Assembly: GCA_037381445.1 (NCBI GenBank)
Contig: JARRQT010000050.1
Coordinates: forward strand, 1-23,697
Length of the DNA: 23,697 bases
Source: Calditrichia bacterium
Lineage (GTDB): Bacteria > Calditrichota > Calditrichia > RBG-13-44-9
Reading direction: 5' to 3'
Shown in pieces: positions 149-17,191 of the stretch. Position numbers and translations under genes: made by a program. Below the pieces are notes generated by a model. That model searched no databases, was not told the origin of the DNA, and worked only from the letters and a program-made list of their open reading frames with translations. How positions within the stretch are numbered: the first letter of the stretch is position 1; each line of letters begins with the position of its first letter.

Positions 149-175
149 GTCAGAAAAATGCCAGCAAAGATACTA

Positions 176-2968
176 TTATTTTACCAGCAGCATCTTCTTG
201 GTTAACACGTGGGATTTCGCTTCCATTCTGTAAATATACACGCCAGCACTCACAACATTTCCGTTATGATCGCGGCCATTCCAGACGATGTCATGGAAAC
301 CTGCGCTCAATTTTCCGGAAACCAGCGTGCGGATCGGCTTGCCAAGCATATCGTAAATAATAATGCGAACTTCTTCATTGTTTGGCAATCCAAAGCTTAT
401 ATGGGTCGAAGGATTGAACGGATTCGGGAAGTTCTGCTGAAGTACAAAATCAGTCGGAACTGCCTGGTTGTTCTTATCTCCGATTCCCGTATAAGTGACA
501 GCAACTTCGCTGGATGTCTGACTTTCATTACCGGAGAAGTCAAAAGCGGCTACTTTGTAGTAGTAACTTTCATTTGCGCTGACTTCGGCATCGGTATAAG
601 TGACATCCGTCGTATTCGCTATGGGTTCCATATTCTGAATACTGAAATTGGGAGAAGTGCTGCGATAAATCGCGAAATAGTTGAAATCTGCGTCGGTTGA
701 CTCATCCCAGGTCAGCGTAATGCCCGAAGCGGTGATCTGGCCATTGACATTGGACGGCGCTGTAGGAGCCAGGTTGTCCACGGAGTAACCGCTATCGGGT
801 GCTGTAGACATATTCATGGCAGGAACACTGGTGTAACCAGTCACAATGAAATATGACCAATGCTGACCATCTATTTTGGTGGAATCATACAAGGTCGGGA
901 CAATTGCGCTGTAGGTTGCATTTCCGCCGGCGGGAACTTCACCTGCGAAATCCCAGACCTCTCCGTTCAACTGCAATGCGGCATTTTCATCCAGAGAAGC
1001 CGAGGACAGTTGTTCGAGAGAAGTGTAAACAGATTTGGCTGTGTTCTGGGCATTGGCCGGAGCAGCATTCATATCAGCTTTTCTCCAGATCACATAATTC
1101 TGGATCGGATTGTCTACCGCACCGTCGCCGCTGAACCGGCTCCACACGATCCTGACCTGACGGCCCTGATCATTGGGAACGTCAGCGATTTCTTCAATCA
1201 TTCCGGCACCTAAATCGCCTGTGGTCAAGGCATTGTAGGAGGCCTTCAGCAAGCCGATCGTGAATTTGGCATTATGGATACCAAAGCTGCCATCGGCTTC
1301 AATCATTAAATAGTTATAGGCGGCTTTTAACTGTACCGGCGTGTAATCTTCCGTTACGGTGACTGTCTCTTCATTGAGAGGAGGCAGCAGCATACCAATT
1401 TCTTCCAGCATTCCTTTCACTTCATCCTGGATACTTTCGATATTGCCGTCAGCGTCATAATCTTCACTGGCTTTGAAGTCGGCAAACGAAGTGACATTGC
1501 CGTGGCAGGTCTGGCATGCGCCAACCAGATCAACCTCGCCCTGGTCTCCGGTATAGCTCACCATAAAAGTATGACCACCGATATGATCCCGGCCATACTG
1601 GCTTGGATCGCTTGGATTGGGAGCCACGCCATCACCGGGTGTGGGTGCCATATGGCAGGTGACGCAGGAATTTCCAACCACTTTAATATGAGTAGAACTG
1701 GGAATGTTCTGGCCGAATGTCACAGCATTTGTTCCGGCCAATACATCCGCCTGGGGTCCTTCATGGGGGCCAAAATGGGATGCATATTGTGTGGTGTAAG
1801 TTGCTGCATCGCGGCGGGAACGGTGGCAATTCATACAGAGTTTACCAGTTCCGCCATCGGAAATCACATCGCCATTCTCCAGCGTAACAGTTGCGGTGGA
1901 GTGCAGTTCGGCAGTATGCGGCTCATGGCAGGCGGCACATGAGATGTTGCCGGGTGCGGCGGGATCGAATTCCAGATTGCTGTCAAATTTTGCGGCAAAT
2001 CCCAATGCGCTGTGGCAGACACCGCAATCTTCGCGGGTGGGAGCGCCGTGAGCAGCAGTGTACTGATCGTAGTTATGGGGAGAATTTTTCCACTGTTTGC
2101 TGTGGAAATGACGCCAGGGTTCATCATGGCATCTTCCGCAAACATCCTGATCCATAGATACTGACATTTTCGATGAAATAAAGACTTTTTGATGCTCACT
2201 GGCCGGACCATGGCAGTTTTCGCATTGGATACTTGCCAGGGGAGCAAGTCCGGAATATTTAACAACCAGGGTGTCCCATTCGCCGGCCTGAGGATGAGCC
2301 GGGAATACCCAGCCTAAATCAGCAGCAACGTCATCGAAACCATGATTGACGGCAGTCGGGTCGGTGTCATATCCCAGCGTATGGCATTCAATACATGATT
2401 CGGCATAGTGATCACTAGCAACTCCATTAATACCCTGCTGGAAAAGCAAAGAGTGGCCGGTTCCTGCCCATTGACTGATTTTATCGCTCATACCCTGGTG
2501 GCAATAGCAGTTTCCGTTTTCATAATCATTCGGATTGGCTATTAGGCTGTCCACATTGCCAACGCCCACATAATCTGCGCTAATGATAGTAACTGTTGTC
2601 GATGCGGTGCCGGTTGCGGTTGTAATGGTCAGCTGAACCACGTAGGTTCCGATCATACCGGGCCTGAAAGTGGTCCACTCGGTATCTGTGCTGTCCAGCG
2701 TGGTTGCATCACCCGCCGGGACTGTGGTCAATGACCACTCATAGGCGGTGACGGCTTCACCGGCGAGGTCTCTGCCGGACAAGTAAACCAGTTCGCCTTT
2801 TCCCACGGTTGTCAAACCGGTAGAGGGTGAAGATTCCCACCCGAGCTCTTCAAGGTCGCCATGGCTCAGACCCTGCACTATAATTTTGGGCGTCTGGGCG
2901 CTTCCTATTGCCAGGAGACCCATCAGCAAAAAGACCGTAAGAGCAAAAATTGGAACTCTTAATTTCAT
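176..2968 (-). CDS. Secreted multiheme c-type cytochrome (8 CxxCH + 1 CxCH) with N-terminal PKD/Ig-like domain, FN3 domain and C-terminal T9SS-type/FlgD-Ig sorting domain
   Basis: 930 aa. Sec signal MKLRVPIFALTVFLLMGLLAIGSA|Q and SD AAGGAG upstream. Heme motifs: CIECH, CENCH, CGRCH, CGVCH, CAACH, CMNCH, CVTCH, CQTCH, plus CYCH. FN3-like segment 'DNLAPTAPSNV...LTWDE...YYYKVAAFDFSGNES'. CTD 'LQQNFPNPFNPST...IYDMLGK...WNGRD...AGVYIYR...KKMLLVK'. Confidence 0.9.
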   Translation of the reverse strand: MKLRVPIFALTVFLLMGLLAIGSAQTPKIIVQGLSHGDLEELGWESSPSTGLTTVGKGELVYLSGRDLAGEAVTAYEWSLTTVPAGDATTLDSTDTEWTTFRPGMIGTYVVQLTITTATGTASTTVTIISADYVGVGNVDSLIANPNDYENGNCYCHQGMSDKISQWAGTGHSLLFQQGINGVASDHYAESCIECHTLGYDTDPTAVNHGFDDVAADLGWVFPAHPQAGEWDTLVVKYSGLAPLASIQCENCHGPASEHQKVFISSKMSVSMDQDVCGRCHDEPWRHFHSKQWKNSPHNYDQYTAAHGAPTREDCGVCHSALGFAAKFDSNLEFDPAAPGNISCAACHEPHTAELHSTATVTLENGDVISDGGTGKLCMNCHRSRRDAATYTTQYASHFGPHEGPQADVLAGTNAVTFGQNIPSSTHIKVVGNSCVTCHMAPTPGDGVAPNPSDPSQYGRDHIGGHTFMVSYTGDQGEVDLVGACQTCHGNVTSFADFKASEDYDADGNIESIQDEVKGMLEEIGMLLPPLNEETVTVTEDYTPVQLKAAYNYLMIEADGSFGIHNAKFTIGLLKASYNALTTGDLGAGMIEEIADVPNDQGRQVRIVWSRFSGDGAVDNPIQNYVIWRKADMNAAPANAQNTAKSVYTSLEQLSSASLDENAALQLNGEVWDFAGEVPAGGNATYSAIVPTLYDSTKIDGQHWSYFIVTGYTSVPAMNMSTAPDSGYSVDNLAPTAPSNVNGQITASGITLTWDESTDADFNYFAIYRSTSPNFSIQNMEPIANTTDVTYTDAEVSANESYYYKVAAFDFSGNESQTSSEVAVTYTGIGDKNNQAVPTDFVLQQNFPNPFNPSTHISFGLPNNEEVRIIIYDMLGKPIRTLVSGKLSAGFHDIVWNGRDHNGNVVSAGVYIYRMEAKSHVLTKKMLLVK

Positions 2969-3086
2969 ACATCTCTCCTTAGTTAGTTATACCTGTGCTA
3001 GTAATTAATAATTTTTATTTAACACTCCAGAGTAAGCATGGGAAAAAAGTATCAAAGAGACTTACTCCTTTAAGTGAAAATATTCC

Positions 3087-3103
3087 CACAATATTTGTGC
3101 CAA
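3087..3103 (-). promoter_or_regulatory. Sigma54 (-24/-12)-like promoter of the secreted cytochrome gene
   Basis: Minus strand TTGGCACAAATATTGTG: a perfect TGGCAC -24 box with GG-N10-GT in place of GG-N10-GC. It is adjacent to an NtrC-family gene and matches the element at 7094-7110. Confidence 0.72.
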
Positions 3104-3131
3104 GGTTTTTATGATGATACAATTATAATAT

Positions 3132-3144
3132 AATCAATACTTTA
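3132..3144 (+). promoter_or_regulatory. Putative IHF-binding site
   Basis: AATCAA-TACT-TTA is an exact match to WATCAANNNNTTR and lies between the sigma54 core and the first enhancer palindrome, the usual position for IHF. Confidence 0.55.
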
Positions 3145-3178
3145 AAAAGCGACTTGGGTTGCTCATTTTATCAAAATG

Positions 3179-3285
3179 TGGGGCATATATGTCTCATGCA
3201 CATACGATGATAATGTTTAAATGTATGAATAATTTAAACTTATATGGTTGCGACATTGCTGCATCAATGGGACATGAATGTCACA
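3179..3285. promoter_or_regulatory. Three 18-bp palindromic upstream activator sequences (putative binding sites of the NtrC-family regulator)
   Basis: TGGGGCA-TATA-TGTCTCA (3179-3196), TGCGACA-TTGC-TGCATCA (3249-3266), TGGGACA-TGAA-TGTCACA (3268-3285). The same motif recurs at 7186-7312. Confidence 0.7.
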
Positions 3286-3464
3286 GTGAATGGGCCTGGC
3301 ATAAAATGATTTGAGTAATTTTTAAAAAATTAATATGTAAATGAAATGATTTGTCGAAATTTGGGGGTGATTGTTCGAATATGTGCTTTATTGTGAGTGT
3401 TTGTTCAGGTGTGGAGGATGCGGATAAACATGCGGCAGAGGAGAGATCAATGCTAATTGGCGAG

Positions 3465-4832
3465 CTATTTTAATCTGTATTTTTTTATAAGACGGTGAAT
3501 GGTGCGCCGGTCGATACCGCAGGCTTCAGCGGTGCGGCTGATATTCCAATCATATTTCCGCAAATTGATTTCAAGATATTCCTTCTCAAAATTTTCCAGA
3601 ATTTGCTCTTTGGCTTCCTTAAATGACAGATTCTCAAGATTTGGCATGGATTTTTGATTAAGTTCCTGTGTGAGGTAAGAGGGTAAATCGGTTGATCGGA
3701 TAGCCGGAGACGAAGCCATGTAGTAGGTGCGTTCAATCACATTCTGCAATTCCCGGACATTTCCCGGCCAGGGATATTGCCGCAGGGTTTCCAGGGCCTT
3801 TGGATTGATTTTATGGATTTCCCGGTTGTATTTGCCTTCCAGTTCGTTTAAGAAGTATTGCAGCAGTAACGGTATATCTTCTTTCCGTTCCCTTAAAGGC
3901 GGGATTATAATATGAATGGTATTGATCCTGTAAAAAAAGTCTTCTCTCAGCCAGCCCTGCTCCAGCGCATCCTGCAATTCGCGGTTTGTTGCGCTCACCA
4001 CCCGGATATTTACCGGAATTTCTTTCTGGCCTCCAATCCGCCGGATTTTTCTTTCTTCCAGCATGCGCAGCAGCTTTACCTGCAGGTTTTGGGGCATTTC
4101 ACAAATTTCATCCAAAAACAGGGTGCCCCCGTTTGCAAGCTCTACCAGTCCGGGCTTGGCCTGAAAGGCGCCGGTGAAGGCACCTTTTTCGTATCCGAAT
4201 AATTCGCTCTCAAATAGCTGCTCCGGCAGTGCCCCGCAATTGATGGGAATGATGGGATGATTACGCCTCAAAGAATGTTTGTGAATACTTCTGGCAACAA
4301 GTTCCTTTCCCACCCCGCTCTCGCCGGTGATCAATACATTGCCGTTACCATAGGCAACCTTCTTTATCATGCTGAAAATATTGTGCATAGCGGGACTGAT
4401 TCCCACGATATTTTCAAAGCCTTCCTGAATCTCGGAATTGGCAGGTTCATTCGCAGGAAAGATCTGTTTGATAGCGTTTGCTACGGATTCAAGGAGTTTT
4501 TTGCTGGAAAAGGGTTTTTCGATAAAATCAAAGGCGCCGCTTTTTACCGCTTCCACCCCGATCTCCAGGGTACCATATCCGGTGACCATAATGACAGGAA
4601 GATGAGGATGATTTTTCTTTAGAATTGACAGAAAACTCAACCCATCCATTCCGGGCATTTTTAGATCAGAAATTACCAGGGAGAACTGATGATTGTTTTC
4701 CAGCATCTCAAAGGCTTCTTCAGCCCGTGAAGCGGTGTAAACTTTGTACCCGGCACGATTCAAAATCTTTTGATAGCTGACCAGCATTTCCTGTTCATCA
4801 TCAACCACTAAAATTTCCGGCTTATCCATCAT
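3465..4832 (-). CDS. Sigma54-dependent NtrC/AtoC-family response regulator (REC-AAA+-Fis HTH)
   Basis: REC domain (VVDDE, D in 'ISDLKMP', FIEKPF), Walker A GESGVGKE, GAFTGA loop, FLDEI, WPGNVRELQN and a C-terminal HTH 'NISRTAEACGIDRRTIHRLIKKY'. The start overlaps the kinase 3' end and may be the second ATG at 4829. Confidence 0.96.
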   Translation of the reverse strand: MMDKPEILVVDDEQEMLVSYQKILNRAGYKVYTASRAEEAFEMLENNHQFSLVISDLKMPGMDGLSFLSILKKNHPHLPVIMVTGYGTLEIGVEAVKSGAFDFIEKPFSSKKLLESVANAIKQIFPANEPANSEIQEGFENIVGISPAMHNIFSMIKKVAYGNGNVLITGESGVGKELVARSIHKHSLRRNHPIIPINCGALPEQLFESELFGYEKGAFTGAFQAKPGLVELANGGTLFLDEICEMPQNLQVKLLRMLEERKIRRIGGQKEIPVNIRVVSATNRELQDALEQGWLREDFFYRINTIHIIIPPLRERKEDIPLLLQYFLNELEGKYNREIHKINPKALETLRQYPWPGNVRELQNVIERTYYMASSPAIRSTDLPSYLTQELNQKSMPNLENLSFKEAKEQILENFEKEYLEINLRKYDWNISRTAEACGIDRRTIHRLIKKYRLK

Positions 4833-6345
4833 AGACCTCCATGGTAATGATAAATCTTGCGCCGCTATGCCCGACCTTTTCCAGGTTTATGTTTGCATTA
4901 TGATTGGCGAGGATATTTTTAACAATGAATAAGCCTAATCCCGTGCCCTTGTCGGAATCCTTTGTGGTGAAAAAAGGCGAGAAAATTTTGTTGTGATATT
5001 CATCCGGGACCCCCGGGCCATTATCCTGATAAGCAACCCGGTAAATGGATTTGCCCTTTTCATCATATATTTTTTTGGTGACGACCTGAATAACACCGCT
5101 ATTTTCGCAAATAAAATCAAGGCTGTTATTGATGAGATTGCAGAATACCTGTTCAAGTTGATTAAAATTTCCCCAGACTATGGAAGGCGATTGAGGCATA
5201 TTTAGCTTTATCTTGACCTTGCACTTTTTTATTCGGGGCTCCAGGATTTTAATGGAATGGGGAATCAGTTCATTGAGATTTACTTCGGAGAAGGTATGTG
5301 GCAGTTTGCGCGAATAATGTAGAATACTGCGGGTGGTTTCTGCAATTTTTTCAGTTTGTTGAATGATGATGTCAAGATCTTCGATGCTGCCGGAATTTAC
5401 ATTTTGGTCCAGCATTTCATCTTTAAGATATTCTGCCCGGGTCAGAATGATACCAGCCGGATTATTGACCTCATGAGCGATTTCGGCGGCGACTTCGCCT
5501 AATGTCACCAAGCGATCCGCCCGCTGCAGTTTTTCCAGAAAAAATTGCTCTTCTTTTTGGCGGGAGATTTTCAAATTTTCGACCATCTGGTTGAATTTTT
5601 GCGCCAGCAAAGCCAGCTCATGCTGGCCGGGCATCCGAATCTTAAAATCAAAATTTCCTTTTGGCAGGTGTTCGAACCCTGCCATTATGGTTTTAAGTCT
5701 GGTTTCTACTTGAGATTGATAGAGTAAGTTCAGCAGAATCCAGAGAATAACGATGATGAGGACACCGCCAAAAATTATTAATTTCTTGGAGGCGACATAC
5801 ATCTGATCCGATTGTGTAAAGCCGGCCTTGATATCCATGACGGCAATCAGGGCTCCTTCATTCTTGTGACAGGGTGTGCATTCCTTCTGAATGTAAATGG
5901 GATGACGGTGAGTGTAGATGTTCCCATTGCGCGCAAATGCTTCAATTTCAGACGATCCGTCTTTACTAGAGGTCAACATATTGGAATACGTCCGCACATT
6001 TTTGTTGACTTCGCTTCTGGAAGAGGAATAGAGAATTTTTCCGGTCGGTCTGTAGATGCGGACCTGTTTTATGGTTGGTTCCATGGCCAGCAATTCCAGA
6101 TTATGCTGAATGACCAGGGAATCATTTTTCATCATGCCGTCAAAGATGAATTGATATACTACCTGGCTGGTGGTCTCGATCATGTTCACTGAAAAATCGG
6201 AATAATTTTTATCAAGCTGGTAAACGAATAGGCCTACCGGAACACCGACCACCAGCAAAAGTATTATGGTGATAAATGCCATGAGGCGGAATTTGAGCGA
6301 GAAAAATTTTATTTCAATTTTCTTCTTTAATCTATCTGAAAACAT
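4822..6345 (-). CDS. Membrane sensor histidine kinase (NtrB-like, HAMP-HisKA-HATPase) with periplasmic CxxCH heme-binding motif
   Basis: Two TM segments flank a periplasmic domain containing ECTPCH. HAMP 'ELALLAQKFNQMVENL', H-box 'IAHEVNNP', N-box 'QVFCNLINNS', G-boxes 'DNGPG', 'FSPFFTTK', 'GTGLGL'. Confidence 0.94.
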   Translation of the reverse strand: MFSDRLKKKIEIKFFSLKFRLMAFITIILLLVVGVPVGLFVYQLDKNYSDFSVNMIETTSQVVYQFIFDGMMKNDSLVIQHNLELLAMEPTIKQVRIYRPTGKILYSSSRSEVNKNVRTYSNMLTSSKDGSSEIEAFARNGNIYTHRHPIYIQKECTPCHKNEGALIAVMDIKAGFTQSDQMYVASKKLIIFGGVLIIVILWILLNLLYQSQVETRLKTIMAGFEHLPKGNFDFKIRMPGQHELALLAQKFNQMVENLKISRQKEEQFFLEKLQRADRLVTLGEVAAEIAHEVNNPAGIILTRAEYLKDEMLDQNVNSGSIEDLDIIIQQTEKIAETTRSILHYSRKLPHTFSEVNLNELIPHSIKILEPRIKKCKVKIKLNMPQSPSIVWGNFNQLEQVFCNLINNSLDFICENSGVIQVVTKKIYDEKGKSIYRVAYQDNGPGVPDEYHNKIFSPFFTTKDSDKGTGLGLFIVKNILANHNANINLEKVGHSGARFIITMEVYDG

Positions 6346-6680
6346 TTAACTGTTCACATTTGGAAAAACCGGATTATAAAAGCATATCTCAAAAATCTAC
6401 TTAAATATACTAATTTTTATGAATATATAAAATCTTTCCCAAAAAATAAAAATCTTTCTTATTTCTCACACTTTCAGGCGGTGACAGCGCTTGGCTGCTG
6501 TGTTGGAATGAAAAGGATCCAACAAAATAATTATAGTCTTTCCGCCAATGGTTTGGTTTGATTTTGCGGGCTTGGAATGATCAAAAGCAAATATGAGAAA
6601 GAATGATCGTTTTATTGTCAGTGTTTGTGCTTCGATTCAAAAAGAGACTGCTGTTTGAACTGTTGAGAAGGGAGTGCCAG

Positions 6681-7061
6681 CTATTTTGCCAGCGAGGATG
6701 GAATCTGCAAAATGGATCCGATTATTTCACAGGTGGTGTCCACTGAGACAGGCTTAACCTGATGTGAGATGATGCCCAATGATAATGCAGCAGTGCACAG
6801 GTCCATTTTGTCCGCAGATAAAAACAGTACAATTTTGGTGCTGCGATGGATTGAATGAATAACGTGGATCATATTACTTACCTGGTTACCGAGCAAATCA
6901 ACATCAAGAATGGCCAGATCGGAATAACGGACCAGCAAATTCTCGACCATGTCCAAGGAATTTGTGAAAATGCTGATTTCCATTTCATTTTTGCTTTTCA
7001 GCGAATTTTTGACCTCGCTGAAATATTGAATATCTGATGATAATGTAAGAACCCTGTTCAT
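6681..7061 (-). CDS. Stand-alone, atypical receiver (REC) domain protein
   Basis: 126 aa with a CheY-like pattern: 'DLAILDVD' (candidate phospho-Asp), 'IVLFLS', 'HQVKPV' (conserved K-P). The N-terminal acidic pocket is degenerate (VLTLSSD). Confidence 0.75.
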   Translation of the reverse strand: MNRVLTLSSDIQYFSEVKNSLKSKNEMEISIFTNSLDMVENLLVRYSDLAILDVDLLGNQVSNMIHVIHSIHRSTKIVLFLSADKMDLCTAALSLGIISHQVKPVSVDTTCEIIGSILQIPSSLAK

Positions 7062-7093
7062 TCACGATTCCAACTTCAATTTGTGTAATTAAG

Positions 7094-7110
7094 CACATAT
7101 TCTGTGCCAG
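7094..7110 (-). promoter_or_regulatory. Sigma54 (-24/-12)-like promoter of the receiver gene
   Basis: Minus strand CTGGCACAGAATATGTG: TGGCAC plus GG-N10-GT, the same variant as at 3087-3103. Confidence 0.68.
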
Positions 7111-7185
7111 TTTGTAGAAAGTCTTTTAAGTGACTGTTTTTATATTAAATAGGAATTGTTTGTAAATTCTCAGATTTCCATAAAG

Positions 7186-7312
7186 TGGGGCTAATTTGTC
7201 ACAAAAAATTAATACAAAATCATAAGTCATATAATAACAGTAGTTTGATATATTGGGACAAACGTGACGCAGGTGAGGCATCGGTGTCGCAGGGCTGAGG
7301 TTTTATGTCTCA
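7186..7312. promoter_or_regulatory. Three full plus one degenerate palindromic upstream activator sequences
   Basis: TGGGGCT-AATT-TGTCACA (7186-7203), TGGGACA-AACG-TGACGCA (7254-7271), TGAGGCA-TCGG-TGTCGCA (7274-7291), and TGAGGTT-TTA-TGTCTCA (7296-7312, one base short). Confidence 0.68.
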
Positions 7313-7538
7313 AAACCTCTGACGGGGAGAAAAATTTATAAAAGAAGCAAAAATGTGCTGGCAAGACAGTATTCGATCTAAATTTTCATAAGCATATTTG
7401 CATATTGGTGATTGACCGTGACAGAAGATTTCCAGAAAGATGCGTGGTTTCAAAATATTTAATACGCATTCCTTAATTGGATTTTGTGCCCTTTTGCATA
7501 TCTTTCTACGGCAGAATATGAGCGTTCTTGTTGTTTTC

Positions 7539-8015
7539 TTATATATTGGCCCCCGAATCGTCCTGCCATAGTCTGACCTGAGCTTTGATATCTTTAATTA
7601 CCAGATCGATTGAAGAGGCGACTTCAGGGCTAAGAGAATCCCCCCAGATATTGCTCTTTGGTTCAACGCCAATTATGATGCATTCATCAGGTCTAATTTT
7701 CAGCAGACCCATAAGTGCCAGAACCTCGTGAAAGGTGACCTGGTGTTCGGATAGTTTCATGAAAACTCCGGTTGGTACCCGATCTGCTTTGAGCCTGATC
7801 ATCTGGCCGGGCTGCTTTCCGGATTGAACAATGTCCACTATGATAATATGAGTTTTGTCCGCCAGATAGGGAAGAAGGTAGAGTCCGATGGAGCCACCAT
7901 CGAGAATTTCAATATCAGGCAGTTCTCCGGACTCTTTTAACCTTCTAACCGTTTCAACTCCAAAACCGTCATCACCGAGCAGCGGATTCCCGATTCCAAT
8001 TACTGCAATGTTCAT
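7539..8015 (-). CDS. hyaD: Hydrogenase maturation endopeptidase (HyaD/HupD/HybD family)
   Basis: Motifs 'VIGIGNPLLGDDGFG', 'LDGG', 'IIVD', 'SEHQ', 'IIGVEP', 'LSPEV'. ATGA overlap with the cytochrome b gene. Confidence 0.95.
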   Translation of the reverse strand: MNIAVIGIGNPLLGDDGFGVETVRRLKESGELPDIEILDGGSIGLYLLPYLADKTHIIIVDIVQSGKQPGQMIRLKADRVPTGVFMKLSEHQVTFHEVLALMGLLKIRPDECIIIGVEPKSNIWGDSLSPEVASSIDLVIKDIKAQVRLWQDDSGANI

Positions 8016-8770
8016 GCTGACTTCTTTTTTGCCTGTACCCAGGGCTTTTCAGTTGGCTTCCAACCCAGGGGACGGGTTTTGAGTCCCGTGATCATCGAGG
8101 AAAGCATTCCTTTCTCTCTGTAGACCTCCACATAAAAAACAAACGTGATATGATGGATCATAAATGCGATGATAAACCACATCCCCAGGCGGTGCAGCAT
8201 TCTCACATGTGTCTCGCCGCCGAACAGGGGCATTACCCAGCCAAAAAGCGTATTCAGAAAACCGCCGGGTATCAACTGGCCCCACATAGAAAATCCGGTT
8301 AGCGCCATAAACAGCGCACATAGAAATACCGCCGAATACGATAGACTGGCGAGTGCATTGTGACCAAGGGTATAACTTTCATAATCCTCATAACGGAGCG
8401 TTATATAATCCTTTATCTTCCACCATACCTCCCGCCAATAGTCAGCGCGCCAAAAGTTAAACCTGAACCACTGCCGGTAGGTGTGTCCCGCAAAAAACCA
8501 GTAGGCTCTGAATAGTCCATTCACTGTGAAAACCACCCCGAAAACAAAATGCCAGTTTCGATAAGTTGCCATATTAAATGTTCCTGCGGTGCCTGACGGT
8601 CCCAGGGCACCTCCAATCTTAAAACCGGTATAAATCATGATAGCCACTGCCACGACATTGACCCAGTGGGAAACGCGGACAACGGCGTCCCAGACATAAT
8701 ATCTCTGGACGCGATCCGATTCAAGCCGGTACATTTGATCTAATTCTTTTGTATTTACGGGCGTCGCCAT
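8012..8770 (-). CDS. hyaC: [NiFe]-hydrogenase b-type cytochrome subunit
   Basis: 'YVWDAVVRVSHW', 'RNWHFVFG', 'GHNALA', 'RMLHRLGMW...HH', 'SSMITG'. Four hydrophobic helices; follows the large subunit. Confidence 0.94.
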   Translation of the reverse strand: MATPVNTKELDQMYRLESDRVQRYYVWDAVVRVSHWVNVVAVAIMIYTGFKIGGALGPSGTAGTFNMATYRNWHFVFGVVFTVNGLFRAYWFFAGHTYRQWFRFNFWRADYWREVWWKIKDYITLRYEDYESYTLGHNALASLSYSAVFLCALFMALTGFSMWGQLIPGGFLNTLFGWVMPLFGGETHVRMLHRLGMWFIIAFMIHHITFVFYVEVYREKGMLSSMITGLKTRPLGWKPTEKPWVQAKKKSA

Positions 8771-8819
8771 TTTGCCTCTCTCCGACTTATTTGATTTTTT
8801 AGCCTATTGTTTTTTAGTC

Positions 8820-8906
8820 TGAAATCTCAAAATACGGTTTTGTGTGTTTTAATAATAGTCATAATCACGCCCTATATAAATCTGATTCTGCCTTTTTGAG
8901 ATTTCA
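8820..8906. repeat. 13-bp perfect inverted repeat spanning the hyaB-hyaC spacer
   Basis: TGAAATCTCAAAA (8820-8832) and TTTTGAGATTTCA (8894-8906), 61 nt apart. Confidence 0.6.
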
Positions 8907-8915
8907 TTAACCTGT

Positions 8916-10643
8916 CTATGTCACTTTTACTCTCGTTATCTCCTTTCCGCTCATGTCAAGGACATGGGTTGAGCAGGCCAGGCAGGGGTCAAAGGAGTGG
9001 ATTACCCGGAGAATCTCCAGCGGTTTATCCGGCACCTGAAGAGGCAGTCCGATGAGCGACGCCTCGAAAGGTCCGTGTTGCCCCATCGGATCTTTGGGAG
9101 AACCATTCCAGGTGGTTGCAACAACCGCCTGATAGTTGGAGATTTTCTCATCCTTGATCTTCACCCAGTGTGCAAGCGCCCCGCGTGGTGCTGCATAAGT
9201 GCCCACACCTTTTACTTCTTCCTTTGGCCAGGTTGACGGATCCCATTTTTCCGTATTGGCGGTGTTGTAATTTCCCGCTTTAATATTAGCAATCAAATCA
9301 CCGTACAGTTTCGTCAGCATGGTAACCGCTCGCTTTGTTTCAAGGGCTCTGGCCAGGATACGACCAAATGTGGAATACATTGCTTCAAACGGCAAGTTCA
9401 ACTGTGTAAGGCTGTAATCCACCAGAGATTTGACCTCATCATCACCATGGGCTAGTGCCAGAATGGTCCTGGCTAGCGGACCGCCTTCCATTGATTTCTT
9501 CCGCCAGCGCGGTGCCTTCATCCAGGAATATCTCTTATCCATATCCAGGAAATCCCAGGGTGGCTTGGGTCCTGTATATTGAGGATTTGTCTCACCTGCC
9601 CAGGGATGCAGTCCCACTTTGTCGCCCTGCGTATATTGATACCAGGCATAAGATACAAATTCCTGAATTTGTTCAGGATCTGCCGGATTGACTTCATGTA
9701 CTTCTTTAAGATTACCGTCCAGTACCACGCCACCTTTCCAGCGATTTGTTGAAGTATCTCCGGAAACCTCCGGGAAATCTCCATAATCAAGCACCCCTTT
9801 GTTGCTCACGCCTCCGCCCCATTGTGTCCAGTCCTTATAAAATGATAGAATAGCCAATGCATCCGGAAGGTATAGCTGGTCGACCACAGTGACCGCCTCA
9901 TCAATCTTTGATTTTACCAGTTCAAGCCGATCGATGTTGATAGTATCTGGTGATTCCATGTTGATGGAGCACGGCATGCCTCCCACCAGCATGAAGGGAT
10001 GCGGATTCTTCCCTGCAAAGACCGTATGAATTTTAACAATCTCGCGTTGCCAGTTTAAGGCTTCAATATAATGAGCAAAAGCAAGAAGATTTGCTTCCGG
10101 CGGCAGCTTATACCCCGGATGTCCCCAGTATGCATTTGCGAAAATTCCCAATTGCCCGGATCCAACAAAAGTCTTCAGGCGGGTTTTCATATCTGTGAAA
10201 TAACCAACTGAAGAATCACCCCAGTTTGAGATTTTTTGTGCCAGGGCTGCGGTAGCTTTGGGATCGGCTTTGAGCGCAGATACCACATCAACCCAATCAA
10301 GTGCCTGCAGATGATAAAAATGGACGATATGATCGTGCACAAACAGGGTTGCGATCAGAATGTTTCGAATAATGTTTGCAGTTGAGGGAACGGAGATTTG
10401 GAGAGCATCTTCGACCGCACGAACTGAGGCCATGGCATGAACCAGGGTACAGACTCCGCAAATCCGTTCGGCCAATGCCCAGGCTTCCCTTGGGTCGCGA
10501 TTTTTTAGAATAATCTCAATGCCGCGAAATAATGCACTGGTGGAAGAGGCATCGGTAACCACATTGTTGTCGTTCAGAATTGTCTGTATCCGCAAATGCC
10601 CTTCGATGCGGGTCAAAGGATCAACAATAATTTTTTTAGCCAT
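8916..10643 (-). CDS. hyaB: Group 1d [NiFe] uptake hydrogenase large subunit
   Basis: 'DPLTRIEGHLRI', L1 'ERICGVCTLVH', 'GKNPHP', 'APRGALAHW', L2 'SFDPCLACSTH' followed by a 15-aa cleavable tail. Confidence 0.96.
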   Translation of the reverse strand: MAKKIIVDPLTRIEGHLRIQTILNDNNVVTDASSTSALFRGIEIILKNRDPREAWALAERICGVCTLVHAMASVRAVEDALQISVPSTANIIRNILIATLFVHDHIVHFYHLQALDWVDVVSALKADPKATAALAQKISNWGDSSVGYFTDMKTRLKTFVGSGQLGIFANAYWGHPGYKLPPEANLLAFAHYIEALNWQREIVKIHTVFAGKNPHPFMLVGGMPCSINMESPDTINIDRLELVKSKIDEAVTVVDQLYLPDALAILSFYKDWTQWGGGVSNKGVLDYGDFPEVSGDTSTNRWKGGVVLDGNLKEVHEVNPADPEQIQEFVSYAWYQYTQGDKVGLHPWAGETNPQYTGPKPPWDFLDMDKRYSWMKAPRWRKKSMEGGPLARTILALAHGDDEVKSLVDYSLTQLNLPFEAMYSTFGRILARALETKRAVTMLTKLYGDLIANIKAGNYNTANTEKWDPSTWPKEEVKGVGTYAAPRGALAHWVKIKDEKISNYQAVVATTWNGSPKDPMGQHGPFEASLIGLPLQVPDKPLEILRVIHSFDPCLACSTHVLDMSGKEITRVKVT

Positions 10644-10646
10644 TTT

Positions 10647-11747
10647 TTATTCCTCCTTCTCCTTTTGTTCATCAGGCGGTTCCGGCGGTTTTTTCATTCT
10701 TGCTTTCTTGACACCGGAAGCGACCAGGTGTGCCCCGGTGGCGAAAGCAACTCCGATGGCGAGTGCCTCACCAATATTATCCGGAGTACCCAGGCCGACA
10801 TATGGCACATCGCTGAGGTGTTGATAGAGCGGCTTGTTATCCCAATATCCGGGCTCCGAGCAGCCGATACAGGGATGGCCTGATTGAATAGGATAACTGA
10901 CCCCGTTATTCCATTTCATTACCGCACAGTCGTTATAAGTCGTCGGTCCCCTGCAGCCCATTTTATAAAGACAATATCCCTGCCGAGCTGCTTCATCATC
11001 AAATTTTGTCACAAACATGCCGGAATCGAAATAAGCCCGTCGATAACAGTTATCATGAATCCGGACACCGTAAAATGCTTTAGGCCGGTGAAACAGATCC
11101 ACTTCCGGTGGTTCGCCAAAAGCAATCAGATGGACAATAGTCCCCATGATGACATCCGGAATGGGGGGACAGCCCGAAACATTCACCACCTGTTTGTCAG
11201 TAATAATTTTGTAAATTGGTTTGCACTCAGTCGGATTGGGATCTGCGGTTGTAATGCAGCCAAAAGATGAACAGGCGCCAATGGACATAATCAGTTTTGC
11301 ATTGGCAGCCGCTTCCTTAAGAACTTCAATAGCAGGCCTTCCGCCGATAGAACAATACATGCCTTCGGCTCCAAATGGAACGGAACCTTCTACCAGCAGG
11401 ATGTATTCTCCGGCGTTTTCTTTCATCCCTTTGCTAATGATTTCTTCTGCTTGATGCCCCGCCGCTGCCTGAATTGTCTCCATATAATCCAGGGAGATAA
11501 TGCTTAAAATTGCCTCGGAAGCCAGGGGGTGGGCCGCTTTGATGACGCTTTCCGTGCAGCACGTGCAGGCAGCAAAATTCAGCCAATATACCGGCGGCCT
11601 GGGCTTTGATTCGAGCGCTTTTACCACAGTGGGAAACATGGAATAATCGAATCCCAACGAAGCTGTCATCATGAGACAAAATTTCAGGAAGTCGCGTCTT
11701 GAAACGCCGTTTCGATGCACAGCCTCATAGAACGTTTCTTTCTGCAT
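10647..11747 (-). CDS. hyaA: Group 1d [NiFe] uptake hydrogenase small subunit (Tat-exported, C-terminal membrane anchor)
   Basis: Tat signal 'SRRDFLK'. Proximal CTCCTES, 'GACSSFGC' and 'GCPP'; distal 'IHDNCYRR', 'CLYKMGCRGP'; medial 'YPIQSGHPCIGC'. C-terminal TM helix with His. SD GGAGGAGG upstream. Confidence 0.96.
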   Translation of the reverse strand: MQKETFYEAVHRNGVSRRDFLKFCLMMTASLGFDYSMFPTVVKALESKPRPPVYWLNFAACTCCTESVIKAAHPLASEAILSIISLDYMETIQAAAGHQAEEIISKGMKENAGEYILLVEGSVPFGAEGMYCSIGGRPAIEVLKEAAANAKLIMSIGACSSFGCITTADPNPTECKPIYKIITDKQVVNVSGCPPIPDVIMGTIVHLIAFGEPPEVDLFHRPKAFYGVRIHDNCYRRAYFDSGMFVTKFDDEAARQGYCLYKMGCRGPTTYNDCAVMKWNNGVSYPIQSGHPCIGCSEPGYWDNKPLYQHLSDVPYVGLGTPDNIGEALAIGVAFATGAHLVASGVKKARMKKPPEPPDEQKEKEE

Positions 11748-12415
11748 TTCATACCTCCTCCGTACGGGTTAAAGTTATCGACTATAATTCGCACAGACTT
11801 TGAGAACAATAGAGAACTAATTTCTCTCTCATTTGTCTCATTTACTGCTTAATGTTTTGAATCGACCTTCCTTTCCAAGCATACCTGGAGATCAGAATTA
11901 CCCGCTGGATTCGCCGTTTTAATTTAAAATAGCATGGAATATCTTATCCGGTAAATCGCTGTCCTATTCAGATAAACCCTATCTGACCTTCTGGATGTCA
12001 GATGGGAATACCCGTTCGGAAAAGAAAGTCAAAAAATATTTTATTGGATTTCTTATGCCGGCAGCTTCATGAGGTGTATAATACTTGTTGCAGTCGGATT
12101 CGCGCATCTCTCTGAACCTATAAGGTAAGCATCATTCTCATATCCACCAGATCGCTTAACGAATCCATTAGGAAAATAATTTGAATTTTTAAGAGAGTCT
12201 ATTCACTCCTTTTTTATTGTTAGGATTATTATAATTTACCGGTGTCCGGAACTCCAAAGTAGAAGTAATGCTTTAATAAAACCAACGGTCTCATAACGCC
12301 TTATCCTAATTTTCATATTATTGATATTGTTTTAATCTTCATTGTAATGCAGAAAATTTGAAAATGATGACTATTATAAAAAACTGAAAAATTTATAAAT
12401 TGCTCACAGTCAGAA

Positions 12416-15049
12416 TTATTTATAACCTAAAAGCATACTGACAATAATTGAAACGATCAAAATGATGCCGATAGTCAAAAAAGTGTATCCAAAAATACGA
12501 ATGGCAAGCATTTTCGGTGGCGATATTTCAGTAAAAGAGACCTTCTTACTTAATTCTCCGCTCTTCTTTAGATCTTCATATTCTGCAGGACGGTCTTCTT
12601 TATATTCCTCAACCGGAACCAGTCCCGTGAAAATAACCGGATCTAAAGGAAAGGATTCGGGACGCAAATGGCTGTTAAAAAAGTGAACTGAAAAGATGAA
12701 GCCGACCGCCAATAAGGCCTCATCACCATGAATAATAATGGCAACATTAATGATCCAGCCCGGCAGGAATAAGGTAAAAAATTCGGGGAACCACAGTATT
12801 AGTCCGGTGAAACCAATAACCGCTACTCCCCAAAAAACTGCGAAATAGTCAAATTTTTCCCAGTATGTCCAACGCCCATATTGCGGACGGGGCCCCAGGC
12901 CAACAAACCATTTCATTGATTGCCAGAATTGAATAATGTCTCTTTTCTTAAACCACATGGTATTCTTGCCGAAAATAAGCTGTTTCAGGGATAGCTTTTT
13001 CTTGCTCTTTAATCTTAATAAGGAGCCAAGGTGGGTAAAAAAGTATCCAAATGTAATAACAGCAGCTATTCGATGGATTGTGCCTGCTGCACTAACACCG
13101 CCTACAAAACTGGCAATAAATTTTGCCCATGGAAGTCCGGCAAATTTCAGCATCATACCAGTAAGCGCCAATGCCATAAAACTCAGAATGACAAACAAAT
13201 GAATCAGGCGCTGTAAGGTATTAAAGCGCCGGATATAGTATCTTTTAGGACCAGTGCTGATTTTTCTTTTTTCCTTAAGATGCCTGTAGGAGCGCGGTAG
13301 CCATAAAATTGTATGAACGCCGAAAAAGCTGAAGACGCCAATAAGCAGACCGGTCATTGCCCAGTAGGTGAAAAATAGTATGGGATATTTTGCCCTGTCA
13401 TGGTGAGTCGCATGTGTAAGATAACCTGTAAAGCGACGGTCTGCATCAGGATGACATTTGCGGCAGGTCGTCACAATATTGTCAATTCCAACACTGGATT
13501 TTGGATTGTTGACCGACAGAATATAATGCGCTCCATGGCAGTCCGAACATTTTGCGGCGTTCAGATTGCCATCCAGGTATGCCTGACCATGTATTGTTTC
13601 AAAATATGATTTTGCAAGCCGTTTATGGCAGGAACCACATTCTTCGGTAACTTCCCGCATGAAAGGATCTAATGCAACATTTTGTATGCGATGCGCTGAG
13701 TGACAGTTGTTGCATACCGGCAATTTCTTTTCGGTGTGTGTTACAGTGAAACTATGAATGCTTTTAATGAATTTTTTGTAAATTCCCAGATGACAGGTTG
13801 CGCAGGTTGCCGGGACATTTTTAAAATAGACAGAAGACTGCGGATTGTTGCTGCCTAAAATGTAGTGCGTGCTATGGCAGTCTGTGCAAACCGCAGTAGG
13901 GAGCAATCCCAATTTTACCAGGCCTATTCCATGAACACTACGGGAGTAATCGAACAGCACATTGGCATGTGAGCGCACTTGTTGATTGGGCGAATTTTTC
14001 AATTTGGCATGGCAATCACCACATAATGCCGGGATATGTGTTCGGTAGGTTTTTGCATCTTCATTCAGGTGTGAGAGCACATCATGGGTGCCATGACAAT
14101 AACTACAATAAGGAGCCATTTTATTTTTATTTTCATAGGCCTGTCCGTGGCTGCTGGAAAAATATTTTTCAGTAACCTCGGCGTGGCAGTTCGCACAGTT
14201 TACTTTGCCGACAGTGACCGGCGGATGCGGATGATGAGGCGAAATATCAGAATGGCATTGCACGCAAGGGATGTTTTTATGAACAGAGTTCTGAAGTTGA
14301 GCAACATCGACTGTTAAGGATATCGTTTTGCCATTTACAGTCTTATGAAGATCTTTTTTGGCATGGCATTTCAAACAGCTCTTGTCGGATGTTTTAGGAA
14401 CCACACTTACAGCCTGGATTTTATGAGGAAGGTGACAATCCGTACATGCCGGAACCGCCCCCGGTTGTTGTTCCCATAAGGCGCCGCGAATTATCTTTTT
14501 ATGAACCTGTTCAATTCGTGAATGGCATTTCATGCAGGTCTTAGCGATGTTTTGAACCGATATGCTGGAATGAGGATCTGTGGCGGGAAGGATCATATGG
14601 TTTCTGTGGCAGCTGTTACAGGTAGCCGTCACAGTCAGTCCCATTTTAAAAAGCCCTGTCCCATGGATACTCATGGAATAATTGGCCAGAATATTCTTTT
14701 CGGGGATTTTATAAACCTTTGAAACCGGCGCGCCCTCGCGGTGGCACTGACCGCATAAGGCCGGAATATTCATTATATAAGTGCTTGAATTGGGATTATC
14801 AGGGGGAAGAATATAGTGTACTCCATGGCAGGTGGAACAGGTCGGCGCATACGGTGAACCGCGCTTAAGGGCGGCATGATGAATACTGGCATCGTAATCT
14901 TTGCCCTGCTGTTGATGGCAGCTTTGGCATTGGACCTTAAGCAATTTCTCCGGGTGCGGAAATTCTTTTACATTAGCATCGGTATGGCAATGAACGCATT
15001 GCAGGCTTTTATGCACAGACTTGAGAAATTTGTCGTAATCGACATACAT
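12416..15049 (-). CDS. cbcL: CbcL-like multiheme cytochrome c / cytochrome b (FdnI/HydC-type) fusion quinol dehydrogenase; true 5' end lies further upstream and appears disrupted
   Basis: 18 CxxCH in the ORF plus one in-frame CEICH upstream (15095-15109). C-terminal multi-TM cytochrome b domain ('RLIHLFVILSF', 'IHRIAA', 'RWTYWEKFDYFAVFWG', 'IIHGDEALLA...HFFNSHLRP'). The architecture matches Geobacter CbcL but with about twice the hemes. The symbol is assigned by architecture, not by search. Confidence 0.82.
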   Translation of the reverse strand: MYVDYDKFLKSVHKSLQCVHCHTDANVKEFPHPEKLLKVQCQSCHQQQGKDYDASIHHAALKRGSPYAPTCSTCHGVHYILPPDNPNSSTYIMNIPALCGQCHREGAPVSKVYKIPEKNILANYSMSIHGTGLFKMGLTVTATCNSCHRNHMILPATDPHSSISVQNIAKTCMKCHSRIEQVHKKIIRGALWEQQPGAVPACTDCHLPHKIQAVSVVPKTSDKSCLKCHAKKDLHKTVNGKTISLTVDVAQLQNSVHKNIPCVQCHSDISPHHPHPPVTVGKVNCANCHAEVTEKYFSSSHGQAYENKNKMAPYCSYCHGTHDVLSHLNEDAKTYRTHIPALCGDCHAKLKNSPNQQVRSHANVLFDYSRSVHGIGLVKLGLLPTAVCTDCHSTHYILGSNNPQSSVYFKNVPATCATCHLGIYKKFIKSIHSFTVTHTEKKLPVCNNCHSAHRIQNVALDPFMREVTEECGSCHKRLAKSYFETIHGQAYLDGNLNAAKCSDCHGAHYILSVNNPKSSVGIDNIVTTCRKCHPDADRRFTGYLTHATHHDRAKYPILFFTYWAMTGLLIGVFSFFGVHTILWLPRSYRHLKEKRKISTGPKRYYIRRFNTLQRLIHLFVILSFMALALTGMMLKFAGLPWAKFIASFVGGVSAAGTIHRIAAVITFGYFFTHLGSLLRLKSKKKLSLKQLIFGKNTMWFKKRDIIQFWQSMKWFVGLGPRPQYGRWTYWEKFDYFAVFWGVAVIGFTGLILWFPEFFTLFLPGWIINVAIIIHGDEALLAVGFIFSVHFFNSHLRPESFPLDPVIFTGLVPVEEYKEDRPAEYEDLKKSGELSKKVSFTEISPPKMLAIRIFGYTFLTIGIILIVSIIVSMLLGYK

Positions 15050-15225
15050 TGAAACCGATCGACCATAGCGGGTGGCGGTGAGAGTTGGATCGCTATGACA
15101 AATTTCACAGTCATCATTCGTTGCTGCATATGAAGGTTTTAAAGGAAAGAGCTCTGTAGCCGTTATTCAGTAGTGATTTTCGGTAAAATTGCGAAAATAT
15201 AAAAAGTATTGTTGGTCCGCTTCAT
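15050..15225 (-). pseudogene. Disrupted 5' portion (signal peptide plus first heme) of the CbcL-like gene
   Basis: The main frame stays open upstream of the ATG at 15049 as ITATELFPLKPSYAATNDDCEICHSDPTLTATRYGRSVS until TGA at 15169-15167, with no ATG. A signal-peptide-like start, MKRTNNTFYIFAIL, begins at 15225 in another frame and stops at 15165-15163. Confidence 0.6.
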
Positions 15226-15591
15226 TTTTAAAAAAGGCTTTTAAGAGGCATGAGAAAATTGCAGCGACATCACAGGCAATATCTAATATGAAAAACATTC
15301 TATTGCTGATACGTTGCATTCTGGTGGGTCGCCTTTAGAATCAACTAAAATTCTTTAAGTGATTAAAATATTTCAAAGCAAGCAATATTTATTATGTCTA
15401 AAAATGAACTCCTCAGGCAAATAACTGTAAAGGACAATTAAAATTTTCTTTTGAATGTCTAATATTGAGAATGAATTACGTTATATGAGAACCTGCAATG
15501 TTAAGGACCTTGCCAATTTTGCTCGAAATCATTCCTCGAATACAGGAAAGAATTGACAAACATGTTTGAATTGAGTTTAGGGAAAGATTGC

Positions 15592-15640
15592 AAAAACCGG
15601 TATTTCTTCTAAAAGATTATTCTGTCAGAAGAAATACCGG
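15592..15640 (-). terminator. Rho-independent terminator after the imcH-like gene
   Basis: Perfect 14-bp stem CCGGTATTTCTTCT / AGAAGAAATACCGG (15597-15610 / 15627-15640) with a 16-nt loop, followed on the - strand by TTTTT. Confidence 0.75.
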
Positions 15641-15682
15641 CCGAAGGTTTTAGGAAAAATGTAATCTGTAACAGGAATTAAA

Positions 15683-17191
15683 TTATGGATTCAGACCCGT
15701 ATGGCAGTCCGTGCACAAACTTTCCTTCCATGCCTGATCTATGTCAACCGGGTGCTTAAATTCCAGCGCTTTATTAACGTCTGTCCTTTCCATATTCCCG
15801 GGAGTGCCTTGGGCATTAATCAGATGGCACAGGCTGCAATCTCTGCTTATTGTTTCTCCTTGTTCCGTCTTGTGCATTCCATCATGACATCTGAAGCAGC
15901 CTTTGAACTCAAGATGCCCGATGTGATTGGGATAAGCGCTCCAGCGCACCTTCATATTAGGAAATATGTTTTTGGAAAAAACAGACTGAAATCCGGTGAT
16001 TGCTTTTTCGACCAAAGGTCGATTATTATTATAAATGTCCGGATAGTTTTTCTGGTAATAATCCTGAATATATTCCCGAATGTGAATCATGGCAGAATCC
16101 ATGGAAGGATAAGTATCAGAGCATAAATCCATTGTCACTGTTTTAATATCAGGCAATTCTGGCGGAATATTGCCAGCCGTCATTTCGGTATTGACAAAAA
16201 GTGACGGCGCATTGTATAAATGTGAAGGCCGATTATGGCAGTCAATGCAGTCCATTGTACGTCTTTCTAAAGTATCTAACTGTGCTTTGTCGAGAGGATT
16301 GTTCTCGTCCTCAAATATTGATTCCTCGCCCGTCTCCAGATTTGTATATTTTACCCAGGCAATATCTTCCCGGGCCTTATCGGTTGCAATGTATTCAACT
16401 TTTACGAATGGGCTGATGTGCCAGTGAATGCCTTCTATCAATCCCATAGCAGGATGCTCCGAGCCAACTTTCATTATCAGACGAATGTTCCATCTTGTAT
16501 TGTTTTCATCTGCCAGAAAATGGGTCTGATATTGGACAGAATAAGCATAAAATTTTTGCGGCCAATGACACTGTTCACACACCGCACGTGCTGGCCGTAG
16601 ATCTTTAATGGGCGTGGGAATTGGCCGGGGATAAACATTGGCCAGCGTGGCATATACCTGATATAATCCCGAAAGTTTCGACCGAACGTACCAGTCCGCT
16701 CCCGGTCCCACATGACAGGCCACACAAGCCACCTTGGCATGGGGAGAATTGGCATGGGCTATGTATTCCGGGTCCATTACGGAGTGGCAAAGCGTACCGC
16801 AGAATTGAACCGATTCGGTAAAATGGAAGGCCTCATAACTTCCGAAGGCAGAGAGAAACAGAAAAATGGTGGTTCCAATTGCGAAGATAAAAAAGGCGTT
16901 CCGGTGTCGCGGGTCATTTAAATCCACCTGCGGCCATCCCGCTTCACCATGAACTTTTGCCCTCCTCTCCCGGCGATTCTTGATGATCATTCCAATGGGG
17001 ATTAGCAGAAGCCCCATAACCATGACCGCCGGCAAAAGAATATAAGTGACCAGACCCAGATAAGCGGCTTGTCGTGCCAGAAAGGCCGTAATAGCGATCA
17101 GAAATATGATCATGAAGAGACAGATTATCGCAATAGTAGCCCCAATCAGAGAGATCCAGTTCTGAGAAGAGTGCGGTAATTTTAATTTCAT
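15683..17191 (-). CDS. imcH: ImcH-like NapC/NirT-family heptaheme inner-membrane cytochrome c (quinol dehydrogenase)
   Basis: 502 aa with three N-terminal TM helices. Seven heme motifs: CGTLCH (CX3CH), CVACH, CEQCH, CIDCH, CFRCH, CSLCH, CTDCH. NapC-type context 'ESVQFCG..CHSVMDPEY...SPHAKVAC..CHVGPG'. The 3-TM, 7-heme layout matches Geobacter ImcH. The symbol is assigned by architecture, not by search. Confidence 0.85.
   Translation of the reverse strand: MKLKLPHSSQNWISLIGATIAIICLFMIIFLIAITAFLARQAAYLGLVTYILLPAVMVMGLLLIPIGMIIKNRRERRAKVHGEAGWPQVDLNDPRHRNAFFIFAIGTTIFLFLSAFGSYEAFHFTESVQFCGTLCHSVMDPEYIAHANSPHAKVACVACHVGPGADWYVRSKLSGLYQVYATLANVYPRPIPTPIKDLRPARAVCEQCHWPQKFYAYSVQYQTHFLADENNTRWNIRLIMKVGSEHPAMGLIEGIHWHISPFVKVEYIATDKAREDIAWVKYTNLETGEESIFEDENNPLDKAQLDTLERRTMDCIDCHNRPSHLYNAPSLFVNTEMTAGNIPPELPDIKTVTMDLCSDTYPSMDSAMIHIREYIQDYYQKNYPDIYNNNRPLVEKAITGFQSVFSKNIFPNMKVRWSAYPNHIGHLEFKGCFRCHDGMHKTEQGETISRDCSLCHLINAQGTPGNMERTDVNKALEFKHPVDIDQAWKESLCTDCHTGLNP

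Follow-up and report, generated by a model that had tools for sequence, protein, structure and literature searches.

A Calditrichia locus of ImcH, CbcL and an OcwA-like cytochrome, probably for extracellular electron transfer, with a likely hydrogenase insertion in one genome

In Geobacter sulfurreducens, the inner-membrane cytochromes ImcH and CbcL serve high-potential and low-potential extracellular acceptors, respectively (PMC4251993, PMC13591261), and loss of imcH affects extracellular acceptors (PMC4251993). ImcH is defined by three transmembrane (TM) helices, one CX3CH and six CxxCH heme motifs (Zhong & Shi 2018, PMC6295460), and proteins of the CbcL/MtrH/MtoC family have 3–23 motifs in an N-terminal c domain, 9 of them in G. 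sulfurreducens (PMC6295460); an ImcH (Cabys_1801) and a 920-aa, 19-heme CbcL (Cabys_319) of Caldithrix abyssi were already listed there in 2018. OcwA and OmhA, in turn, are surface reductases of Gram-positive Fe(III) or anode reducers (PMC6703420, PMC7829351). Calditrichota have been described as fermenters and nitrate reducers (PMC5317091), and multiheme proteins are merely listed in metagenome-assembled genomes of the phylum (PMC9769843), the only literature that we found on Calditrichota extracellular electron transfer, with subscription journals outside the coverage; the text of PMC11475568 held no match for the terms searched, and its supplements could list Calditrichota. Here we describe a locus encoding ImcH-, CbcL- and OcwA-like proteins in the window, that is, the whole 23,697-nt contig JARRQT010000050.1 of a Calditrichia bacterium (assembly GCA_037381445.1; contig C50 of genome G000).

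We propose, with a probability of about 0.62 and from sequence evidence, that this is a lineage-conserved ImcH/CbcL plus OcwA-like locus for extracellular electron transfer, into which a hydrogenase has been inserted in one genome. The initial annotation had taken the same genes for a self-contained unit that links H2 to extracellular acceptors. Its gene inventory was reproduced: ten genes at 176–17191 all lie on the minus strand, divergent from dnaN-recF-DUF721-gyrB-gyrA, and a recount gave the 35 CxxCH/CX3CH motifs and one CxCH that it had reported. Open reading frames hold 33 CxxCH (8 in a 930-aa cytochrome, 1 in a kinase, 18 in the cbcL-like frame and 6 in imcH), the CX3CH of imcH and a CEICH near 15109 complete the 35, and the extra CxCH is CYCH. 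Pfam and NCBIfam searches returned a NapC/NirT-like ImcH candidate, a multiheme–cytochrome b fusion, hydrogenase subunits with a protease, a receiver, a HAMP kinase, a sigma54 regulator and a multiheme protein with a type A sorting domain. The host (5.1 Mb in 401 contigs, 91.85% complete, GC 0.477) is of Calditrichota type and not Geobacter, as had been surmised, the closest imcH loci (66–67%) being those of Calditrichia/Caldithrix.

The gene at 15683–17191 (minus strand), divergent from dnaN, encodes an inner-membrane heptaheme cytochrome of the ImcH family. Hydropathy peaks at residues 20–38, 51–69 and 99–117 mark three N-terminal TM helices, a CX3CH lies beside this TM domain and is accompanied by six CxxCH, and the NapC/NirT-like region matches PF03264 with 40.8 bits (cut-off 24.1). 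The heme motifs at 131, 156, 205, 315, 432, 452 and 493 can be set against 132, 156, 205, 311, 428, 448 and 486 in G. sulfurreducens GSU3259 (PMC6295460, Table S3), which was compared through these published positions, sequence identities being taken from other Geobacterales-family homologues. An ImcH match was present in 20 of 31 genomes of a Geobacterales family, mostly at 40–43% identity, and in those genomes imcH-like and nonaheme cbcL-like genes are often neighbours. TM count, motif spacing, NapC/NirT-like region and these matches agree on the ImcH assignment. In a FastTree phylogeny of 49 rows, the ImcH of the window groups with Calditrichia sequences in a clade apart from the Geobacterales-family proteins; three genomes of that family carry a second imcH (L162, L163 and L164; 59–61%) nested in the Calditrichia clade, which suggests horizontal transfer.

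The CbcL-family gene (12416–15163, minus strand; first Met in the window at 15049, frame open to 15163) fuses a multiheme c domain to a cytochrome b domain. Counted with CEICH, the N-terminal domain has 19 motifs, the same number as the Caldithrix entry, and the HydC/FdnI-like cytochrome b domain shows several His columns that are invariant in the alignment, although PF01292 scores 26.8 bits, under its cut-off of 30.1, and crude hydropathy gives 5 TM helices versus the six of the family definition. A nonaheme CbcL-like gene occurs in 25 of the 31 Geobacterales-family genomes and is 41–48% identical over the C-terminal part; this match and the fused domains bear out the assignment to CbcL. The genome also holds two cbcL paralogues, one 66% identical (contig C21) and one with 11 hemes (C2).

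CEICH had been described as stranded. The motif is real and in frame with cbcL, and its stranding most likely reflects 190 bases that are absent from the window. As it stands there, the cbcL frame ahead of CEICH meets a stop without a start or a hydrophobic stretch; four CbcL orthologues have signal peptides. A 7610-base contig of run X1 (depth ~9) that spans imcH, cbcL and part of hyaA matches 11500–15143 and 15144–17582 with one mismatch each, and carries between 15143 and 15144 the 190 letters that the window lacks; because of this difference we assign CEICH to cbcL. Run X1 is possibly the source of this assembly, and a short record of run X5 diverges from the window at exactly that position. 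Its 30 letters beyond the junction, translated by hand in frame, are hydrophobic and resemble the signal peptides of the orthologues. The gap is probably an assembly error that removed the start and signal peptide of cbcL, and from the sequence the gene is most likely intact with 19 hemes and a true start inside the missing bases; alternatively, the gap may be a true deletion in one strain.

The exported cytochrome (176–2968, minus strand), with eight CxxCH and one CxCH, finds its closest solved relatives in OcwA (profile search, E 3.5e-28) and OmhA (8.6e-16), with NrfA (3.7e-5) behind them; Foldseek searches with a structural model returned the same order (E 1e-6 to 3e-6). The protein combines an N-terminal beta-sandwich, two C-terminal beta-sandwich/FN3 domains and a type IX secretion system (T9SS) type A-like tail, and the model contains the three long helices of a C-terminal three-helix bundle. 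The lone CxCH, which had been counted apart from the heme motifs, is present and most likely a real ninth heme site, because it aligns with heme 1, a position at which 85 aligned rows show spacings of one to four residues. If heme attaches there, as we infer, the protein would possess the nine hemes of the OcwA/OmhA family, in its c554-like plus NrfA-like core. Among the best 120 of 936 homologues, the tail motif closes the sequence in 104, nine CxxCH are present in 93, and eight CxxCH plus a CxCH in 9. The tailed clade and the lipoprotein clade each include members with the contracted CxCH at heme 1 (residue 154 of the window cytochrome; L050, L052, L055, L033 and L023).

An export route for this cytochrome is indicated at both ends of the protein: a hydrophobic N-terminal stretch (residues 3–21) has the hydropathy of a signal peptide, and the tail, which ends in Lys, matches the type A sorting domain TIGR04183 with 37.3 bits (cut-off 23), as the initial annotation had anticipated. 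The genome encodes SprA, 18 PorV-like matches (13 over cut-off) and a PorU-like gene, on contigs C78, C46 and C219, together with 113 proteins bearing the tail motif; SprA is found in 39 of 41 genomes. We found no literature joining type IX secretion, multiheme cytochromes and extracellular electron transfer, again with subscription journals outside the coverage. In relatives, a lipoprotein version that forms a separate clade, with a member on contig C104 of the window genome, occupies the same slot. A tailed version is found no more than 10 kb from imcH in G039 and in 5 of the 80 wider loci, and in G003 the same promoter elements precede a 16-heme protein that has the tail but is unrelated. 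Other multiheme proteins with a type A-like tail, in part unrelated to the OcwA-like family, are encoded at L032:1-2388 (16 motifs), L296:2419-3942 (7), L056:18345-19778 (8) and L073:12027-14909 (7).

Conservation of the locus was assessed in 40 relatives, 30 of which gave strong imcH matches (14 of 16 in the family), with two weak partial matches left out. Among 13 family regions, many of which stop at contig ends, dnaN adjoins imcH, in divergent orientation, in 10; DUF2339 is present in 8 (one a fragment), a Rieske/cytochrome b/nonaheme c module in 6, the receiver in 6, the heme kinase in 5, the OcwA-like cytochrome in 5, the 19-heme cbcL in 4 and a hydrogenase in 0. The fullest row, complete in G001 and G010, reads dnaN, imcH, cbcL (19 hemes), DUF2339, Rieske, cytochrome b, nonaheme c, receiver, heme kinase, sigma54 regulator and OcwA-like cytochrome. 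The G015 version of the locus contains an insertion that encodes an octaheme, a 4Fe-4S and an NrfD-type protein (L030:6737-9479); the middle slot of the locus therefore accepts different modules.

The regulatory genes kept in the locus comprise a stand-alone, atypical receiver-domain protein (6681–7061), a HAMP histidine kinase whose two TM helices flank one CxxCH (4822–6345) and an NtrC-type sigma54 response regulator (3465–4832), all on the minus strand. The kinase motif, predicted to be periplasmic, is present in all 9 orthologue rows (two rows are identical), which agrees with the heme-sensing element previously proposed for this circuit. Two minus-strand spacers carry a sigma54-like promoter (pattern TGGCAY-N5-WTGY) with palindromic activator-type sites (TGnGRC-N6-GWCnCA): 7095–7291, upstream of the receiver–kinase–regulator genes (promoter 7109; sites 7186, 7254 and 7274), and 3088–3285, upstream of the exported cytochrome (promoter 3102; sites 3179, 3249, which is weak, and 3268). 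The same elements precede the orthologous genes in several relatives. Five of the 11 genome-wide matches to the pattern, which was derived from these spacers, fall in them; a matrix built from 16 sites of relatives scores 15–23 bits there, and 6 of 24 genome matches above 14 bits, including the top two, are in these spacers. The sigma54 regulator would, we infer, bind the palindromic sites.

The window genes include no porin and no triheme shuttle, by open reading frame list and Pfam scan, and the first of the two options given for the outer-membrane crossing, that it is encoded elsewhere, was borne out. The end of contig C151 encodes a 397-aa porin-like protein, and that of C334 an 11-heme and a 16-heme protein. 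Matches to the porin occur in 31 of 41 genomes; in all 10 family loci fetched, of 13 with a porin, the porin, a 10–12-heme and a lipoprotein cytochrome form one gene row, and in other families this row stands next to imcH, a multiheme fused to cytochrome b, an OcwA-like gene, a kinase and a regulator. Elsewhere in the genome, at G000:C39:8660-12860, cytochromes with 11, 4 and 5 hemes cluster beside a gene for a 720-aa protein. In the mechanism that we propose, quinol would be oxidised by ImcH and the 19-heme CbcL, and electrons would cross the periplasm via the doubled heme chain of CbcL and the 11-heme protein, pass the outer membrane through the porin/11-heme/16-heme-lipoprotein conduit and arrive at the OcwA-like nonaheme, which its type A tail would direct outwards via SprA/PorV. 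The heme kinase would sense the periplasmic redox state, and the sigma54 regulator would activate its own operon and the exported cytochrome.

The alternative closest to the initial annotation holds that the hydrogenase was recruited in this lineage as a functional, co-regulated part of an H2-to-extracellular-acceptor unit. The module comprises, on the minus strand, a small subunit with a Tat signal and two extra cysteines (10647–11747), a large subunit on a long branch (8916–10643), a cytochrome b subunit (8012–8770; TIGR02125 above cut-off) and a maturation protease (7539–8015); the 145-base spacer between hyaB and hyaC (8771–8915) contains a long imperfect inverted repeat. We take the large subunit to be group 1d-like, and both extra cysteines of the small subunit to be of the O2-tolerant type in a group 1d pattern. 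Recruitment would fit the co-orientation of hyaABCD with the locus and its position, which is exactly the slot that the Rieske–cytochrome b–nonaheme c module, also quinone-reactive, fills in relatives; the imcH-cbcL-hyaA bridge of the run X1 contig indicates that this junction is more than a chimera peculiar to the present assembly, provided that the run is not its source. The displaced Rieske module, too, sits behind a hydrogenase, of family type, in both the window genome and G009 (hyaABC followed by DUF2339, Rieske, cytochrome b and nonaheme c at L295, G000:C80:11604-20009, and at L141 on G009:C25).

We nevertheless consider recruitment unlikely, since co-location in relatives, the annotation's own test, failed for the hydrogenase. 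No hydrogenase lies near imcH in 20 relatives' regions or in 80 wider loci across phyla (48 of at least 15 kb, three duplicating relatives, imcH called as an open reading frame in 72), and the only orthologue of the window hydrogenase among 40 relatives (G009, 87%; other matches at most 58%), whose large subunit shares the long branch with that of the window, has unrelated genes on both flanks. Upstream of hyaA, as of cbcL and imcH, the site matrix gives at most 1.1 bits and the sigma54-like promoter is absent. Spacers of 668 and 477 bases separate the parts, and several transcription units are indicated, as had been stated: a terminator-like hairpin follows imcH (~15588–15643, minus strand; 17-bp stem and T run, fold −28.0 kcal/mol, unlisted by a consensus terminator scan) and another follows the exported-cytochrome gene (100–160, minus strand). 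With the conduit, moreover, outside the window, the unit is not self-contained. By its sequence context hyaABCD is likely a separately controlled insertion replacing the Rieske module, and the H2 link, a rearrangement seen in one genome, has neither synteny nor regulatory signals in its favour. H2 could still enter the quinone pool via this hydrogenase or two further group 1 enzymes encoded in the genome, which also has hypD and ccm-type cytochrome maturation genes. Signs of a genomic island were not found: GC in the hya part is 0.45–0.50 versus 0.477 for the genome, and the open reading frame list and Pfam revealed no mobility genes in the window. Ahead of dnaN (17192–18050) there is no dnaA, and a dnaA motif search of the assembly found nothing.

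A second alternative, which we regard as improbable, dispenses with mineral respiration: the cytochromes would serve soluble acceptors (nitrite, hydroxylamine or sulfur oxyanions) or periplasmic redox buffering, and the hydrogenase O2 respiration. The nonaheme does belong to the NrfA/MccA/HAO structural family, and OcwA is weakly active on nitrite and hydroxylamine (PMC6703420). Genes for a heme-copper oxidase, cytochrome bd and ACIII-like complex were found in the genome by motif; given these and the hydrogenase cysteines, which we presume to confer O2 tolerance, H2 may equally feed O2 respiration. An NrfA-type nitrite reductase was rejected because the CxxCK catalytic heme is absent from the window cytochrome, and the genome scan output contains no CxxCK multiheme. 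An outer-membrane export tail and recurring porin–cytochrome neighbours are ill suited to periplasmic substrates, and it is extracellular acceptors that imcH loss hits in G. sulfurreducens (PMC4251993). Least likely is an inward chain that would supply the quinone pool with electrons drawn from Fe(II), sulfide minerals or partner cells, a direction which the occurrence of CbcL/MtrH/MtoC homologues in Fe(II) oxidisers, the bidirectionality of conduits (PMC6295460) and the O2 reductase motifs would allow, but ImcH homologues are reported only from Fe(III) reducers (PMC6295460) and OcwA and OmhA come from Fe(III) or anode reducers (PMC6703420, PMC7829351).

Several observations weigh against extracellular electron transfer by a conserved locus. 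For C. abyssi the acceptor named is nitrate, not metals, and the available text of its genome paper makes no mention of iron reduction, ferrihydrite or insoluble acceptors (PMC5317091); OcwA itself reduces nitrite and hydroxylamine, albeit slowly. The model of the exported cytochrome reaches fold TM-scores of only 0.41–0.48, and the His-His motifs above hemes 2 and 5 of OcwA are not kept in register (R286-H287 and F399-G400 align, with one His at or beside each). On the tail, PF18962 scores 25.1, under its cut-off of 27, and GldM, GldN and GldK were not found with the models used (in a genome 91.85% complete, with weak controls, that for GldN uninformative, and GldL not searched for); the export route would therefore not be the canonical T9SS, whose motor drives substrate release in Flavobacterium (PMC10994853). 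The porin and 11-heme genes lie on different contig ends without overlap. The site matrix is partly circular, its training sites having been picked by a pattern first noticed in the window. In G009 the contig breaks off directly behind cbcL, and no kinase was found; the run contig backs the imcH-cbcL-hyaA side only, the hyaD–receiver junction coming from the assembly.

If our reading of a conserved extracellular electron transfer locus holds, an inner-membrane-to-surface cytochrome chain is complete in most sampled genomes, making metal, humic and electrode respiration directly testable in cultured members. A folded nine-heme protein with a type IX tail would, if true, be a new way to display redox proteins; SprA, PorV and PorU without a recognisable Gld motor raise the question of what powers export; and the conserved promoter with its activator-type site offers a concrete target for the heme-sensing two-component system. 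The claim of an H2-to-mineral island carries less weight, because it is found in one genome only. More tentatively, Calditrichota might be an overlooked electroactive phylum whose OcwA-like reductases reach the cell surface by two interchangeable routes, a lipid anchor or a type IX-like tail that needs no motor, exchanged for one another in one sigma54 promoter slot under a heme-sensing kinase, this strain having in addition integrated an O2-tolerant hydrogenase into the locus; we hold this wider picture to be possible rather than probable.

The locus is built from known families, with an export variant not described before and a candidate regulon. Like O2-tolerant group 1d HyaABC, the hydrogenase has a Tat small subunit, large subunit, cytochrome b, protease and extra cysteines; it is not a conserved member of the locus. 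The ImcH resembles GSU3259 in its TM helices, its NapC/NirT-like region and a nearly identical spacing of heme motifs, but whereas imcH of G. sulfurreducens is monocistronic (PMC4251993), the gene here heads a larger locus adjoining dnaN. CbcL shares with the GSU0274 family the fusion of a multiheme c domain to cytochrome b and its invariant His columns, with 19 hemes instead of 9. The conduit resembles the porin–cytochrome systems OmbB-OmaB-OmcB and PCC3/PCC4 (He et al. 2017, PMC5566968) in that a porin, a periplasmic and a lipoprotein multiheme stand in a row; it is likened to them by gene makeup, having only a weak Porin_4 and no MtrB/OmbB family match in Pfam, and its cytochromes carry 11 and 7–16 hemes where PCC3 has medians of 21 and 34 (PMC5566968). 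The exported cytochrome has its best matches, by sequence and fold, in OcwA of Thermincola potens (6I5B) and OmhA of Carboxydothermus ferrireducens (6QVM), with which it shares the predicted nine-heme core and the C-terminal three-helix bundle. It differs from both in its diderm host, its contracted CxCH at heme 1, its out-of-register His-His motifs and a T9SS type A-like tail, or in relatives a lipoprotein anchor, in place of cell-wall or S-layer attachment; the type A tail on an OcwA/OmhA-like nonaheme is an undescribed export variant and the least-known part of the locus.

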